From: a virus
Taxonomy: Duplodnaviria; Caudoviricetes
DNA: 31,261 bases
Reading direction: 5' to 3' (one strand)
Virus record (IMG/VR): IMGVR_UViG_3300021139_000078
Coordinates: 1-31,261 of that record
A program made the position numbers and the translations under genes. Positions 5,563 through 30,751 of the stretch are shown here, piece after piece (within the stretch, counting starts at the first letter, position 1; every line of letters starts with the position of its first letter). The notes below the pieces were generated by a model. It did not search any database. It was given only the letters and a program-made list of their open reading frames with translations, and was not told the DNA's origin.

Positions 5563-5738
5563 GGTTTCGACCCCCAGCCATTTCCGACGAAGATGGCTCC
5601 AATGCCACCCGTCATTTTTCGTTTCATGATTTCGTTGCAGTTTGAACATTTTCTTTCGGTATCACGCGACTCGATCGGTGTATTGATGTCGATTGTGAAA
5701 TCGCATGATGTGCATGAATATGTGTATGTGGGACTCAT
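5559..5738 (-). CDS. FmdB-like zinc-ribbon protein
   Basis: MSPTYTYSCTSC...CSNC...MKR...F-x-G-x-GW; start 5738 overlaps the Cas4-like stop. Confidence 0.8.
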   Translation of the reverse strand: MSPTYTYSCTSCDFTIDINTPIESRDTERKCSNCNEIMKRKMTGGIGAIFVGNGWGSKP

Positions 5739-6766: not shown

Positions 6767-7198
6767 CTAGTAGCTGTGAATTGTTTGTTCGGATTTCCAT
6801 GCAGCACATGTGCCACCTGAGCCGTAGTGACGGCTGATATATGCCAGCGATGCGACAACTTGTGCCAGCGAACTTGATGATTTCTTGAGTCCGATGTTGT
6901 TGTATGTTGATTCGAGCAACTGACCCACGCCATATGCGCCACTGGATGTGTTCAATGCGTGTGGATTGTGATGAGATTCAGCGGTGATGATGTTGATGAA
7001 ACATTGCGCTGATTTGGGTGTAAGCAATTCATTGATGAATAAATCAATGCGCTGAGTTTCCGTCATGACAATTGCCTCTTTGACGGTGACGACACGAATC
7101 TCTTTGATCTGACGAGTGGCTGACCAAATGGACGCGACGAGTGATAGCACGGTAAGAATTGCAACGAACGATGCAAAACGATTGAGTTTTTGGTTCAT
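6767..7198 (-). CDS. membrane-anchored lytic transglycosylase (SLT/lysozyme-like)
   Basis: N-terminal TM helix; AES...NP.A.N.SSGAYGVGQ and YISRHYG motifs. Confidence 0.85.
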   Translation of the reverse strand: MNQKLNRFASFVAILTVLSLVASIWSATRQIKEIRVVTVKEAIVMTETQRIDLFINELLTPKSAQCFINIITAESHHNPHALNTSSGAYGVGQLLESTYNNIGLKKSSSSLAQVVASLAYISRHYGSGGTCAAWKSEQTIHSY

Positions 7199-7596
7199 GA
7201 TATATATCCCTTCTCTTTCGCCCTGAATAGCTGACGCGAGACTGAATCTCGATGTATTCCCATGGAATGTGCGATGGCATCATCGCTCCAGCCCATTTCA
7301 CGCTTCATCAGAATTTCGAAGAGTCGATGAGGAATTCGCTCAAAACTTTTTCCTTGATTTTCAATCATGGAAGCAATTTCGTGAGGTGAGAAGCCACCCC
7401 ATACGCCGTCAGTGATGTTGTTGTTGATGGCAAAATCCGCACAATCCTTTTTGTGTGGACATTGATCGCAGATCGCTTGCAATTCGGGCAAACGCTCTTT
7501 GAGTTGCTTATCGCCGACTGGAAAGAAATAGTCGGGATCGCCCGAAGTGCATTTGGCTTCGGGAAAGTTAGGAAAGGCGATGTGGTCATTGATCAC
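7195..7596 (-). CDS. whiB: WhiB-family regulator with C-terminal HTH
   Basis: C...DPDYFFP...CDQC.....C and GVWGG; C-terminal GWSDDAIAHSMGIHRDSVSRQL; GTG 7596 preceded by GGGGA. Confidence 0.9.
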   Translation of the reverse strand: MINDHIAFPNFPEAKCTSGDPDYFFPVGDKQLKERLPELQAICDQCPHKKDCADFAINNNITDGVWGGFSPHEIASMIENQGKSFERIPHRLFEILMKREMGWSDDAIAHSMGIHRDSVSRQLFRAKEKGYIS

Positions 7597-7945
7597 GCGA
7601 ATCCCCATAACCAGCATCACGGATCAGATTCATCATTTCTGAAAGGGGCATCACTGCCCACCAATCGCCAACACGGGTGATTCCCACGCCATTGGGTTTG
7701 ACGATCAAAATGCCGAAATCTGCTTTCGCATTGTTTTTCTCAATTTCGGTTTCCTTGATCCATTCAGGAAATTTGTAGCTCTTGTGATTCTTGACCTCCA
7801 TGACAAGTCCGGGAATTCCAGTGATGTCCCCGAGGTCACTGCTGCCGGCAAGCGCTCGTCTCTCTGCACCGGGGAAGCCCTGTCCCGCGATGTAATTGAC
7901 GACCGCCGTCTCGGCAGCAGTTCCCTTTGCCTTGGCTTTGCTCAT
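7586..7945 (-). CDS. Holliday junction resolvase, actinophage PD-(D/E)XK type
   Basis: KAKGTAAE, AERRAL.G..D.GDI.G, EVKN. Confidence 0.8.
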   Translation of the reverse strand: MSKAKAKGTAAETAVVNYIAGQGFPGAERRALAGSSDLGDITGIPGLVMEVKNHKSYKFPEWIKETEIEKNNAKADFGILIVKPNGVGITRVGDWWAVMPLSEMMNLIRDAGYGDSRDQ

Positions 7946-7951
7946 CGGTGA

Positions 7952-8155
7952 CTAAGCGCAATCGCCAAGTTCGGGCAGATGCCGACGGATGACATCTCCG
8001 TTTCGGTACAAAATCTCACGCAGTTCATCAGCTTCTCCATAGGCATGGAAAAGTTCGGCTTTCACATTGTCGAGTTCGTTGTTCATGCCCCACCAAGTCA
8101 CGCATGCGCCAAAAAGGAAAGTGAGGAAAGAGAAGAAAATCCAAAACTGAGCCAT
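7952..8155 (-). CDS. small membrane protein
   Basis: N-terminal hydrophobic helix; AAGGGGGA SD. Confidence 0.7.
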   Translation of the reverse strand: MAQFWIFFSFLTFLFGACVTWWGMNNELDNVKAELFHAYGEADELREILYRNGDVIRRHLPELGDCA

Positions 8156-8308
8156 TTATTTGTCCCCCTTGATTGCGCGTTGAAATTTATGAAATGACTC
8201 GATCTCATCTTCGATGCGATAGAAATCCTCACGCTCAAAAAAGTTGATAATGGTGAGAGTGGTGATGCTTGCGACGAAGCACCCCGCCAAAATTGCTAAA
8301 ACGATCAT
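8156..8308 (-). CDS. small membrane protein (50 aa, not in ORF track)
   Basis: MIVLAILAGCFVASITTLTIINFFEREDFYRIEDEIESFHKFQRAIKGDK; TGGGGG SD; stop abuts the next ATG. Confidence 0.7.
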   Translation of the reverse strand: MIVLAILAGCFVASITTLTIINFFEREDFYRIEDEIESFHKFQRAIKGDK

Positions 8309-8439
8309 TTATTGCCCCCAGAAATGAGTGAAGCCCCATGGAAAGCGCTGGGGGCAGCACGAACCATGGAGCTTCTAATGATTGAACCAATTCTGAAATC
8401 GCAAAATTCCCGTGGAAGTGATGCTGAAATTCGATCCAC
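8305..8439 (-). CDS. putative leader ORF (44 aa, not in ORF track)
   Basis: GTG 8439 after AAGGGGGG; open to a TGA overlapping the next ATG (ATGA); spans a strong RNA hairpin. Confidence 0.45.
   Translation of the reverse strand: MDRISASLPREFCDFRIGSIIRSSMVRAAPSAFHGASLISGGNK
8330..8375 (-). promoter_or_regulatory. leader RNA hairpin with C-rich anti-SD loop
   Basis: 12-bp and 6-bp stems whose mismatches are G-U pairs only on the minus strand; CCCC loop. Confidence 0.6.
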
Positions 8440-8494
8440 CAACTGCCCCCCTTGCGACTAGGATGGGAGTTGAAAAGGTTTACTTAGCTTTCAA

Positions 8495-8549
8495 TTTGTC
8501 TGAATTTGACCACTCGGACACAAGTAGTCAAAAAGAGATATCAGACAAA
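8495..8549. promoter_or_regulatory. divergent promoter/operator region
   Basis: TTTGTCTGA...TCAGACAAA and TTTGAC...GTCAAA inverted repeats; opposed -35-like TTGACC (+) and TTGACT (-); lies between divergent units. Confidence 0.45.
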
Positions 8550-8576
8550 AATCGCCGAAAATCCATCTCGGCGTGG

Positions 8577-8624
8577 CTTTCATAAACCTATTCAATGCCC
8601 CCATATTGAATTAGTAGGTGAAAG
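8577..8624 (+). promoter_or_regulatory. integrase 5' leader hairpin occluding the SD, loop GCCCCCAU
   Basis: CUUUC/GAAAG, ACCUA/UAGGU and UUCAAU/AUUGAA stacked stems ending 3 nt before the ATG. Confidence 0.55.
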
Positions 8625-8627
8625 ATA

Positions 8628-9689
8628 ATGAACAACGAAAAGAATGTCTATACCAACACGCCGAGCCGTGTCAGAAACTTTCAATCTCAAGTTGAGGCTG
8701 AGACCTCTAGCCTAATCGAGCCACAAGAGCGTAGCGTTCCTCATGCTCGCAATCAGGCGAGTCGCAGTTATCGTCGGGAGCGAGACCCTGACTTCGGATT
8801 GGGAATTGAGTTGGAAAGTATTTATTTGAGGATGCCCGAATTTACGCAATCGTGGCATATTGAGGTCGGAAACCTTTTGCATAGAAGGTACGAATTAGCA
8901 GGTTTTGCCCGTTCAACATTTATGAAAGATTTCTCCATGCTTCGGCATATATGCAAGGAACGCCATCCGCGGGATGTCTATTTGCAGGATTTGGAAGAGT
9001 ATGTGCTGGGAGCCACCAAACTTTCGACACGAGCTGCCTATATCGCCCGAGTGAAATCAGTGTGGAATTCCTTGCGTATTCTCGGAATCATCCCGAATGA
9101 CTTTCGCCCGGATGAAGGCTTGCCCAAAACCAAAGAGCCACGCTATACCCCGCGCCCGATCAGCAAAGAGCAAGCCATCATGCTGATGACTCAGGCTGAA
9201 GAGCCGATGCGCGAATGGTTCATGTTCGCATGTTTGGCAGGGTTGAGAGCTATCGAAATCAGTCGCATTCAGGGAAATTGGCTGGAGCAACATGCGGGTG
9301 AGTATTTTCTTCGAGTACTAGGAAAAGGAAACACCGAGCTTCTCGTCCCCCTGCATCCCAAACTGGTGCAGATCATTTTGTCCAAAAAGACTCAAGGTCG
9401 CCTGTACACGATTGAAGCGAACTATCTTTCTCGGATCGCCTGTGCTGAAATGCGCCGACTCGGAATCTTCACCAAAAAGAATGGCTCAAATCGCTCACGA
9501 TTGTCATTTCATAGTTGCCGACATTTCTTTGCAACATCGGTGCTTGCTGCTAGTAATAACCTCATAACCACGCAAAGATTGATGCGACATGCTTCCCCGG
9601 TTGTCACGGCTCGGTATGCCGATCTCGTCAACCACGAGGAACGCGCCGTCATTCAAACTTTGCTGGACGATATCGAATGGAGTAAGTGA
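8628..9689 (+). CDS. int: tyrosine recombinase/integrase (XerC/D-like catalytic domain)
   Basis: AGLRAIEI (R), GKG (K), HSCRH (HxxR), LMRHAS (H), TARY (Y) all intact. Confidence 0.92.
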   Translation: MNNEKNVYTNTPSRVRNFQSQVEAETSSLIEPQERSVPHARNQASRSYRRERDPDFGLGIELESIYLRMPEFTQSWHIEVGNLLHRRYELAGFARSTFMKDFSMLRHICKERHPRDVYLQDLEEYVLGATKLSTRAAYIARVKSVWNSLRILGIIPNDFRPDEGLPKTKEPRYTPRPISKEQAIMLMTQAEEPMREWFMFACLAGLRAIEISRIQGNWLEQHAGEYFLRVLGKGNTELLVPLHPKLVQIILSKKTQGRLYTIEANYLSRIACAEMRRLGIFTKKNGSNRSRLSFHSCRHFFATSVLAASNNLITTQRLMRHASPVVTARYADLVNHEERAVIQTLLDDIEWSK

Positions 9690-10069
9690 TGAACGATTTA
9701 GAGAAGTGTGTGAAGAAACAAATGAATGTCGGGATATATCAATGGCTTCCCGATCGAATTGCTGGTGACATCACGGGTTCACGCGATCATCAAGCGGCAT
9801 TGATCAAGATTTTCAAAAAGCACAAAAATAACATGATTCCCGTTGAGTTGATTTGGAAATCCCAAACCATCATGGAGTATTACTGCGACGGAATGATGAT
9901 CGGTTTTATACCCACCGACCACCTTGATCGATGGAATGAATTTTTCAATTACATGGGTGATGCACCCAAACGAATGGTGGGAACTGTTCAAATTTCCTAC
10001 TGGGATAAGGGAAAAATGTATTTGCCGGGAATGCCCGCAATGCAGGTGATCTATAAGCCAAAAAAATAG
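9686..10069 (+). CDS. hypothetical protein, possibly HIRAN-like
   Basis: ITGSRDHQAAL and YCDGMMIGFIP resemble HIRAN motifs; start overlaps the integrase stop. Confidence 0.5.
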   Translation: MMNDLEKCVKKQMNVGIYQWLPDRIAGDITGSRDHQAALIKIFKKHKNNMIPVELIWKSQTIMEYYCDGMMIGFIPTDHLDRWNEFFNYMGDAPKRMVGTVQISYWDKGKMYLPGMPAMQVIYKPKK

Positions 10070-29048: not shown

Positions 29049-29200
29049 TATTTATCTCCCAAATCTGCAAGAATCGAACCGACAAGAATCAAAACGCCAC
29101 TGCATATCAATGCAGCGCCTACGCCTAAGATGAAACCAACACCTGCTGAAATCATGGCTGCGCCGATGGCTTCACTTACTGTTGTGACCCAGTTACGCAT
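29048..29200 (-). CDS. small membrane protein between terL and portal
   Basis: ATG 29200 after GGAGG; two hydrophobic helices. Confidence 0.7.
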   Translation of the reverse strand: MRNWVTTVSEAIGAAMISAGVGFILGVGAALICSGVLILVGSILADLGDK

Positions 29201-30734
29201 CGGAAACCTCCATTGAAAACGGATCGAAAATTTGTGGCATTGAGCCACCTTCGGAATGCCACCAACTGGCTCGCTCTAACGCCATGACCGCGGAAACCGC
29301 TAAGTCAATACGGCGCTTTGAACCCTTTGCCTCTTTGGATAGGCGTGAACCTCGATTGTCAGTTCGAAGTTGTGCGTTGGCGATATGTCGTGCAAGTCGG
29401 GGATCATCATCATGGGTGATTTGTTTATTGACAACGGCTTCAAAGAATCGAGTTGTTGCTGGTGTCATTCGACTCGGTGTCTGCGGGAAGGTAACAACCG
29501 GCAAACCTTCATCTTCAAGAATTTGAAATGTTCGCGCCCATCGATAGGGATCGCACACAATTTCCAACACTTGAAACTTTTGAGCCGTCTCACGAATCTT
29601 TTCTTCGACTTCGAGAACGGGAACTTGCCAACTGGAATCTGCCTCATCCGGCTTTTCCCATACGGCAATTGGAAACACATGGGGATCACTTTCAACCGTC
29701 ACGGCGACGATCGCCGTACAGTCACCGTTGAACGATCCATCAAAGCCAATGACGATGTCAGTGCCGTCAGGAATTTCTCTCGGTTCACAACACGCATCCC
29801 ATGTTCCGTGTGGCAACCATGCGTCAATGGTTGATGACCAAATGTTTAGTCGTTTTGTTTTGAACTCAGCCTCTGGTGTTCGAAGTATTGCCGAAGCAAA
29901 ATCATCAGCAGCAACAATGTCACCGAAGCCAGGATTCGCTTCTTGCCACAACGCTTTGTCACGATAATCCCCTTCGTTGTTTGCTTCCCACCATGCAAAA
30001 AAGAATGTCGGATCATCAATCTCACCGAGTGCAATTTTTTTTCCATACTCATACAATGAAAAACACAATGAATCTTTTCCACTGTTGTCGGTTTTGACCC
30101 CCGCAGTGGTGATGGCAACAAGCATCGGTTCGATACGAGCGCCCATCGCTAGGGACATCACATCAAACAACTCTCGATTGGGTTGTGCGTGAAGCTCATC
30201 GAAGCACACCAATGTCGGGTTCAAACCCTCTTTGGAAAATGCGTCGGATGAAAGTGCGCGATAGACCGATCCTGTTTTGGGATTGTGAATCGTGTCTTTG
30301 TACACCGTCAACATTTCTGACAATTCAGGATGAAGTCGAACCATTTCTTTTGCTGTGTTGAAAACAATTTTGGCTTGCTCTTTTTCAGCAGCGCAGGAAT
30401 AAATCTCGCCACCTTGAGCGCCTAACACCAACGATTCAAGTGCGACGGCTGACAACCATGCAGACTTGCCATTCTTTCGCGGCAACCCGACGAGGGCAAC
30501 GCGATGACGGAAAGTGTTGTTTGCTTTGACGGCGAAAAGTTGTTTAGTCAATTCGCGTTGCCATGGTCGAAACACGAGATCATCGCCCGCATGTCCAGCA
30601 ACGGAATCTTTTGTAATTTTGCATAGAGCTTCAGCAAAGTCGGCAATGTCATCGCCACGAGATCGCTTCAAGTCAGCAACAGGAACTTTCGTCAACCATT
30701 TCGGTGGAAACCCATCGATCTTTTTCGTTGACAT
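29193..30734 (-). CDS. terL: terminase large subunit
   Basis: Walker A PRKNGKS, Walker B VCFDELH, ITTAG, nuclease GFDGS and RIDLAV. Confidence 0.96.
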   Translation of the reverse strand: MSTKKIDGFPPKWLTKVPVADLKRSRGDDIADFAEALCKITKDSVAGHAGDDLVFRPWQRELTKQLFAVKANNTFRHRVALVGLPRKNGKSAWLSAVALESLVLGAQGGEIYSCAAEKEQAKIVFNTAKEMVRLHPELSEMLTVYKDTIHNPKTGSVYRALSSDAFSKEGLNPTLVCFDELHAQPNRELFDVMSLAMGARIEPMLVAITTAGVKTDNSGKDSLCFSLYEYGKKIALGEIDDPTFFFAWWEANNEGDYRDKALWQEANPGFGDIVAADDFASAILRTPEAEFKTKRLNIWSSTIDAWLPHGTWDACCEPREIPDGTDIVIGFDGSFNGDCTAIVAVTVESDPHVFPIAVWEKPDEADSSWQVPVLEVEEKIRETAQKFQVLEIVCDPYRWARTFQILEDEGLPVVTFPQTPSRMTPATTRFFEAVVNKQITHDDDPRLARHIANAQLRTDNRGSRLSKEAKGSKRRIDLAVSAVMALERASWWHSEGGSMPQIFDPFSMEVSDA

Positions 30735-30751
30735 CAAGCCCCCCGGCTAAT

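Follow-up and report, generated by a model that had tools for sequence, protein, structure and literature searches.

Fold-back inhibition in IS10 is exerted by a structure in the 5' untranslated region (UTR) that sequesters the ribosome-binding site. Loop-mediated antisense control is known from the CopA/CopT, RNA I/RNA II and RNA-IN/RNA-OUT pairs, and simple tyrosine recombinases act on core-type sites such as loxP, FRT, dif and the attachment sites attP and attB of the phage Brujita. In IS200, secondary structure in the 5' UTR represses translation of the transposase (PMC4513863), and the attachment core of ICEBs1 is a 17-bp stem-loop (PMC5812530). In the Mycobacterium phages BPs, Brujita, Charlie and Phrann, a repressor gene that has attP inside it is placed directly upstream of the integrase gene (PMC3694055, PMC4557955); in Phrann, only 4 nt separate the end of the repressor gene from int. 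Here, a hairpin termed H3 that precedes the integrase gene (int) of a virus was analysed in the IMG/VR record IMGVR_UViG_3300021139_000078. The window, meaning the entire stretch of DNA analysed, is the whole of this record, 31,261 bp in length with a CheckV completeness of 96%.

Results

The most economical reading of H3, to which a probability of about 0.4 is given, is that of a cis-acting leader hairpin that would mask the Shine-Dalgarno (SD) sequence of int and lower translation of Int, by analogy with a known kind of control for recombinase genes. The figure was kept at this level because the start of the int transcript is only presumed and family-wide support is weak. In the proposed mechanism, the int transcript would begin upstream of 8577 and so include the 5' arm, the U-rich segment 8577-8583 would pair with the SD GGUGA at 8617-8621, and this pairing would limit ribosome binding and lower Int translation, a low level of Int being the presumed purpose. 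Integrases of the Brujita type have no directionality factor, and the direction in which they recombine is reported to be set by how much Int is present (PMC3694055). The features concerned are as follows.

8577..8624, + strand: hairpin H3, three segments, in the presumed 5' leader of int; outer stem CUUUCAU/GUGAAAG, short middle stem and inner stem of 7-8 bp; the minimum-free-energy fold
8597..8604, + strand: loop GCCCCCAU, which together with U8596 contains the octamer UGCCCCCA (8596-8603, site S4)
8591..8612, no strand assigned: 22-nt core TTCAATGCCCCCATATTGAATT, comprising the inner palindrome minus A8590, the spacer or loop, and one base past the 3' arm; identical in the relative L016
8617..8621, + strand: predicted SD GGUGA of int, within the outer stem, assigned from sequence and fold with a presumed function
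8628..9689, + strand: int, encoding an apparently arm-less tyrosine recombinase of 353 amino acids (aa) (PF00589, E 3.2e-9; 5VFZ gp33, E 4.3e-13; N-terminus aligned across nine family members)
8567..8575, + strand: 5' arm of a 9-bp bracket, the partner of which (8657-8665) is within int codons 10-13

The three-segment hairpin that the initial annotation had described at 8577-8624 was recovered at that place as the minimum-free-energy fold, with an energy of -12.0 kcal/mol and a z of -4.59, and none of 200 shuffled sequences folded as well. Its arms are CTTTCAT/GTGAAAG (8577-83/8618-24), ACCT/AGGT (8586-89/8616-19) and ATTCAAT/ATTGAAT (8590-96/8605-11), the last pair forming an inner palindrome that encloses the 8-nt spacer GCCCCCAT (8597-8604). 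A 20-nt imperfect inverted repeat is also listed here. The loop GCCCCCAU is as had been described and was located at 8597-8604. The int SD (GGTGA) sits 6 nt before ATG 8628, and the stem of H3 ends 3 nt before the same codon. Consistent with the earlier proposal that this SD is hidden, the predicted fold has G8618 to A8621 in base pairs. Counting both strands, the 31 kb contain three copies of the octamer TGCCCCCA, against about 0.7 expected from base composition, and all of them are inside 8313-8603. The 9-bp inverted repeat said to bracket the hairpin domain (8567-75/8657-65) is present in the window, and its inclusion gave a fold of -28.2 kcal/mol with a z of -3.93. However, a complementary run of more than 5 nt at these places was found in none of 12 relatives, and because it is without counterpart in all 12 the bracket is likely fortuitous.

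The reading frame of int is closed upstream by the TGA at 8619-8621, and the first start codon after it is ATG 8628. A start at ATG 8832 instead, which had been considered in the initial annotation, is untenable because Tyr48, Arg52 and Ile65, invariant in nine family members, are encoded upstream of the later in-frame starts. Conserved residues 48-68 all fall before Met69, which is encoded at 8832, and no other ATG, GTG or TTG covers the three invariant positions.

Searches with Int of viral and metagenome collections returned approximately 20 distinct related contigs, with identities of 39-75%; individual relatives are designated here by L numbers. The closest of them is L002, equivalent to L016, with an Int that is 75% identical. 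In this relative the inner 22 nt are identical, and the outer stem has been rebuilt from other letters and again pairs the SD. Its own SD, GGAAAGG, pairs with the upstream U-rich CUUUUUCC, two wobble pairs having been gained via changes on both strands, and the fold reaches -19.6 kcal/mol (z -3.12), a stability matched by none of 200 shuffles. Over the 9 kb compared between the window and L016, 8591-8612 is the third-longest of 25 exact matches of at least 14 nt and the only one located in this intergenic region. Clustering of the octamer and the 22-nt identity with the closest relative are clearly non-random, and H3 is under selection within its own small clade. In that clade the folds of the + and - strands have energies of -13.3 and -11.8 kcal/mol in the window, -15.9 and -8.4 kcal/mol in L002, and -15.4 and -11.2 kcal/mol in L056.

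The hairpin is retained only in the closest relative. The loop end and 3' arm, CCCC(A/G)TATTGAATTG, are kept in L002, L003, L004, L005, L006, L007 and L018, with the window version ending in A and not G. Overall, the 3' arm and the end of the spacer are kept in four clades and the 5' arm in the window and L002 only; the other clades have different palindromes or none, and the 5' arm is lost in L003-L007. In L018, a C-to-U change converts a C-G pair to U-G. L008-L010 have palindromes of their own at the same centre, such as GATAG-CTCTCCA-CTATC; these include one double change from A-T to G-C, and some of their pairs are G-U. In the folds predicted for L056, L011-L013 and L086, a pyrimidine run upstream is paired with an SD-like purine run, the fold of L086 being at chance level. 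As to covariation in homologues, which the initial annotation had put forward as a check, the hairpin is kept and re-made in L002/L016, and across the family it is not conserved in register. Conservation of the loop held in part: it is identical in L016 and C/U-rich in other clades but absent in L086 and L011-13. No match to the exact 22-mer was found in viral_contigs, a search from which the window's own record was possibly excluded. The 14-mer CCCCATATTGAATT gave about 280 matches in the same collection, mostly random, and one of 118 loci was a family member, already known.

Several results weigh against masking of the SD by H3. When H3 was folded in a 69-nt context, z was only -1.73 and 13 of 200 shuffles were as good, which weakens the case that the hairpin exceeds chance, and 15.2% of the 10,405 48-nt + strand windows in the genome reach -12 kcal/mol or below. 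Perfect 7-bp inverted repeats with 4-10 nt spacers are also at chance level in the window (17 seen, about 13 expected). In a 10-sequence alignment in register, 62.2% of cells pair compared with 58.4% in shuffles, with 4 of 17 pairs changing on both sides, and the RNAalifold consensus of 10 sequences lacks H3. With a longer segment, z was -1.5 or lower in only 5 of 14 family sequences, ranging from +0.3 to +1.7 in the L003-L007 clade and standing at -0.09 in L086, and of 15 sequences only 9, among them all three of the window's clade, gave a better fold for the + strand than for the - strand. The int start region is no less accessible than others: its mean probability of being unpaired at -15..+3 is 0.46, which places it 16th among 37 genes, and in seven genes the -55..+3 fold is more stable. 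A simple scan of 8100-8800 found no sigma-70-like promoter on the + strand. Near-identical DNA was found in freshwater metagenomes only, and no RNA run was among the sequencing runs that contain it. Finally, identity over 22 nt of stem and loop fits a sequence-specific site better than a mere stem. Alongside masking in cis, the conserved loop and 3' arm, CCCC(A/G)UAUUGAAUU, probably also have a sequence-specific partner.

The sole Pfam domain in Int is PF00589 (Phage_integrase) at residues 180-333, with a score of 37.2 bits against a cut-off of 27.1. Residues Arg207, Lys233, His295, Arg298, His321 and Tyr330 are invariant in nine sequences and, in our reading, would be the catalytic Arg/Lys/His/Arg/His/Tyr set. 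The best solved relative is gp33 of PDB entry 5VFZ (E 4.3e-13), which we take to be the Brujita integrase, ahead of XerD (E 2.8e-6). Matches to Int were found in 192 phage records, all below 60% identity, with the hosts Mycobacterium, Gordonia, Mycolicibacterium and Rhodococcus; identities are about 27-33% among the best 30 of the 192. No Pfam domain is located before residue 180, and the AlphaFold model is poor overall (predicted local distance difference test, pLDDT, 48). In this low-confidence model residues 1-53 are without secondary structure (pLDDT <30) and residues 62-164 are helical. Taken together, the lone PF00589 domain, gp33 as best structural match, the actinophage hits and the low-confidence model point to an arm-less 'simple' recombinase of the IntBrujita subgroup, a group of simple recombinases (PMC8138268). 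By eye, no ssrA-like tag is evident at the C-terminus of Int (...DDIEWSK).

Upstream of H3, four further features bear on its interpretation.

8313..8320, - strand: SD UGGGGGCA of the first early gene (8156-8308), site S1, the proposed trans target of the H3 loop
8330..8375, - strand: hairpin H1 of the early-operon leader, with apex UGCCCCCA at 8356-8349 on the - strand, site S2
8505..8532, no strand assigned: palindrome H2 (10-8-10) with centre CGGACACA, 70 nt from H3, given as context
8553..8573, no strand assigned: hairpin H2b, directly 5' of H3, the only helix in the 10-sequence RNAalifold consensus, with compensatory changes in four of four pairs

The candidate roles of H3 are not mutually exclusive. 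It is conceivable, though we consider it unlikely, that the selected element is the linear motif CCCC(A/G)TATTGAATT(G) before the start codon, serving as part of an int promoter or as an A/U-rich ribosome standby site, and that the palindrome is incidental. The motif is present in the window, L002, L003, L004, L005, L006, L007 and L018 with the 5' arm not kept, no SD can be recognised after it in several relatives (L003, L008-L010), and palindromes of such size are found at chance frequency. The motif moreover opens the direct repeat R2, the partner of which, R1, adjoins H1 in other clades. These observations are set against perfect retention of the 5' arm between the window and L016, where the outer stem was re-made, against the result of the promoter scan, and against the hexamers TATTGA and TTGAAT, each of which by eye lacks a key -10 position. 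Comparable doubt attaches to the alternative named in the initial annotation, a tyrosine recombinase core site, in which the 7-8-7 palindrome ATTCAAT-GCCCCCAT-ATTGAAT would be the attP core or an autoregulatory site bound by Int, and the RNA hairpin a by-product. Simple recombinases reportedly use short inverted-repeat sites (Lunt and Hatfull 2016), and both the perfect inverted arms, 17 nt upstream of the int ATG, and the simple type of Int, with its single domain, gp33 as best structure and N-terminal 53 residues unstructured in the low-confidence model, are in keeping with such a site. A tRNA-like stretch in Phrann, read here as its attP core, is likewise approximately 60-115 nt upstream of int, no conserved att-like block is present downstream of int, and the 22-nt block remains identical in the window and L016 while its flanks diverge, as for a common core; small stem-loop cores are also known, for instance that of ICEBs1 (PMC5812530). 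Shape and enzyme therefore suit the proposal, but no host attB was found. The core 18-mer gave 13 matches in 596 Gb of genomes, where about 17 are expected by chance, and none was actinobacterial. No relative of Int and no integrated copy was seen among the 185,579 species genomes of genome_contigs, although the host may be missing from the collections. The metagenome scan for Int relatives returned phage-form contigs only, and in every relative with upstream DNA that was read, a phage control region of the same type stands before int. In Logan contigs of three freshwater runs the virus is likewise seen in the phage form alone, and no joint, inversion or loose end is present at the hairpins. 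Perfect arms of only 7 bp are at chance frequency, the 5' arm is not kept in L003-L007, and the neighbouring palindrome H2 is at least as good a candidate.

Action of the loop in trans, as had been proposed in the initial annotation, is improbable. In that proposal, UGCCCCCA in the int leader would repress early translation by pairing with G-rich SDs at 8320-8313 and 8451-8443 in the divergent early transcript. The match of 8590-8603 to 8307-8320 is indeed present at 12 of 14 positions, but its repeat score of 18 is within the shuffle range (16.0 +/- 2.4, maximum 26), as is that of L002 (15 against 15.7), and it is not unique to the early ribosome-binding site. The TGCCCCC that had been cited is found at 8444-8450, within CTGCCCCC (8443-8450). 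For the first early start region, a duplex of -17.3 kcal/mol is predicted, second of 36 regions and well removed from the genome-wide mean of -6.0 +/- 3.1, yet the start region of a late terminase-like gene (29193-30737) scores better at -17.9 and a coding site at 5582-5626 reaches -19.5. All three copies of the octamer fall in this region, TGCCCCCA being complementary to 8349-8356. The octamer also forms the apex of H1, which is complementary to the early SD in nine of nine relatives, and the int loop can thus be seen as a copy of a cis anti-SD, which makes action in trans physically reasonable. The C/U-rich loop of other clades could still pair with G5 through G-U pairs. Conversely, GGGG-type SDs are common in this phage, so a C-rich loop would not single out early genes; the folds predicted for L003-L007 have the C-run in base pairs instead of exposing it, and the loop is absent in L086 and L011-13. 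A bolder and equally improbable proposal can be framed, in which the space of the repressor gene is filled by a switch at the RNA level. Because the int hairpin displays the octamer UGCCCCCA that serves the early leader as a cis anti-SD, each of the two divergent transcripts could compete for or silence the ribosome-binding sites of the other. Were the palindrome the attP core as well, the hairpin would be split on integration and int translation altered, which would make this an integration-dependent riboregulator. A role for H3 as the kissing hairpin of a short cis-antisense RNA, as in IS10 and IS200, is very improbable. Such an RNA would run on the - strand from a promoter-like site at 8650-8622 (TAGACA-17-TATCTT) to the terminator-like H2b at 8573-8543. 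The one promoter-like and one terminator-like site are on the same strand and in the right order, and the RNA of approximately 70-77 nt is predicted to form three hairpins, one of them a mirror of H3 with a G-rich loop; an antisense RNA against the transposase 5' UTR is documented for IS200 (PMC4513863). Nevertheless, for each type of site one was found and 1.0 is expected by chance, neither is at the same place in L016, and the z of the RNA fold is only -1.85. Masking of the int SD in cis stays the favoured account of H3.

In the leader of the early operon, H1 with its CCCC tetraloop is a very stable and conserved hairpin, having an energy of -20 to -33 kcal/mol in nine of nine relatives and a basal stem formed from at least four different sequences. 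Two stretches are complementary to the apex UGCCCCCA of H1, namely the first early gene's SD (8320-8313) and the G-run at 8451-8443. A helix between the anti-SD and SD of the early leader was recovered in the RNAalifold consensus in nine of nine relatives. The early leader has the layout of a translational switch, and a leader open reading frame (ORF) at 8442-8305 ends in an ATGA overlap with the start of the first gene.

The centre of H2, (T)CGGACACA(A), is found in every locus of the Int family, with arms that vary between clades and with the centre flipped in L086. H2 may serve the early promoter as an operator, or it may itself be the true site of recombination. Two inverted copies of TCGGACA are present at H2 in L087/L024. 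A fim-like inversion switch between the inverted octamers at 8349-56 and 8596-8603 was considered and rejected, as the H2 centre has the same orientation in all relatives read except L086, and no strand-changing joints were seen. H2b is terminator-like on the - strand in the window only, and the T/C-rich run that follows it on the + strand is the 5' strand of the H3 outer stem.

Small protein genes within 8309-8627 were likewise rejected. The + strand ORFs of 57 and 40 aa and the - strand ORF of 37 aa from ATG 8604 are not kept, and the relatives use all three frames. A direct repeat is found at about -250 and at +8..+22 from the int ATG (codons 3-8) in L003, L005, L008-L012 and L023, and is absent in the window and L002. 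Its two copies, one in a block beside the hairpin of the early leader and one in int codons 3-8, change in step in at least three clades, with the forms GAATTACC.ATTC, GAAATGCC.ATTTC and CCAACTCCCCTCT.

The virus is freshwater actinophage-like, with marker genes that include a WhiB-type gene (7195-7620), a RusA-like gene, a PD-(D/E)XK nuclease, a primase-polymerase and a CHAP lysin. The product of 7195-7620 has a WhiB domain joined to a C-terminal sigma-70 region-4-like helix-turn-helix. Apart from int (8628-9689) and the 127-aa ORF that follows it, every long ORF is on the - strand. Structural and lysis genes (31 kb to approximately 10.1 kb) and early genes (8308 to 1) are read leftward, and int is read rightward between these two blocks, across a non-coding region of 319 bp (8309-8627). 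The 127-aa ORF (9686-10069) overlaps the end of int by 4 nt; because it is without a family match and is missing in relatives, it looks like an inserted accessory gene (moron). A search with blastn against cultured phage genomes found nothing, an Rfam search of 7800-9800 gave no family at E values up to 1, and a tRNA search of the window found none, with no hairpin resembling a tRNA T-arm or anticodon arm by eye. In most relatives int is followed by bidirectional terminator-like hairpins, and L003 has a (GA)n microsatellite of approximately 45 nt after the int stop. The contig of L002 (L054) encodes a second tyrosine recombinase at 480-1265, 37% identical to Int, upstream of the lysin and on the late-gene strand, where the window is without one.

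Discussion

H3 is an ordinary kind of element, and its function as an SD mask is putative. If it does limit Int synthesis, this would add one more mobile-element recombinase that is restrained at translation, which would not be surprising; masking in cis, if true, would be useful for annotating the integrase modules of uncultured actinophages. The wider region is of more interest, as it combines a Brujita-like, apparently arm-less integrase with the absence of the repressor gene that defines integration-dependent immunity. The place of the repressor is taken by several conserved hairpins and a thrice-repeated C-rich octamer, an arrangement that may bear on the decision between lysis and lysogeny.

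The int locus resembles the cassettes of BPs, Brujita, Charlie and Phrann in its related, apparently arm-less integrase (28-30% identity) and in the orientation of int, which points away from a divergent lytic operon on the other side of a short control region. It differs in that 8309-8627 contains no conserved ORF, only a chain of hairpins, and therefore no upstream repressor gene, and in that Int has no evident C-terminal ssrA-like tag. As with the cores of loxP, FRT, dif, Brujita and ICEBs1, inverted arms surround a spacer of 6-8 bp beside the recombinase gene, and the Int encoded here appears to be of the arm-less type that uses such sites. Unlike those cores, however, H3 has perfect arms of only 7 bp that are not conserved across the Int family, no attB was found for it, and a second, better palindrome (8505-8532) is 70 nt away. 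The pairs typified by CopA/CopT share with H3 a G+C-rich loop of 6-8 nt on an A/U-rich stem that is exactly complementary to the loop or SD of another RNA, but the partner transcripts here do not overlap and the complementarity depends on an 8-nt repeat. Compared with IS200 tnpA and IS10, the gene here is a phage tyrosine integrase, the hairpin is known from a predicted fold, and the leader of the divergent operon has a further copy of the conserved C-rich octamer found in the H3 loop. What H3 has in common with these two systems is a stem-loop just upstream of the start of a recombinase gene that pairs the SD, with a low level of recombinase as the presumed purpose.

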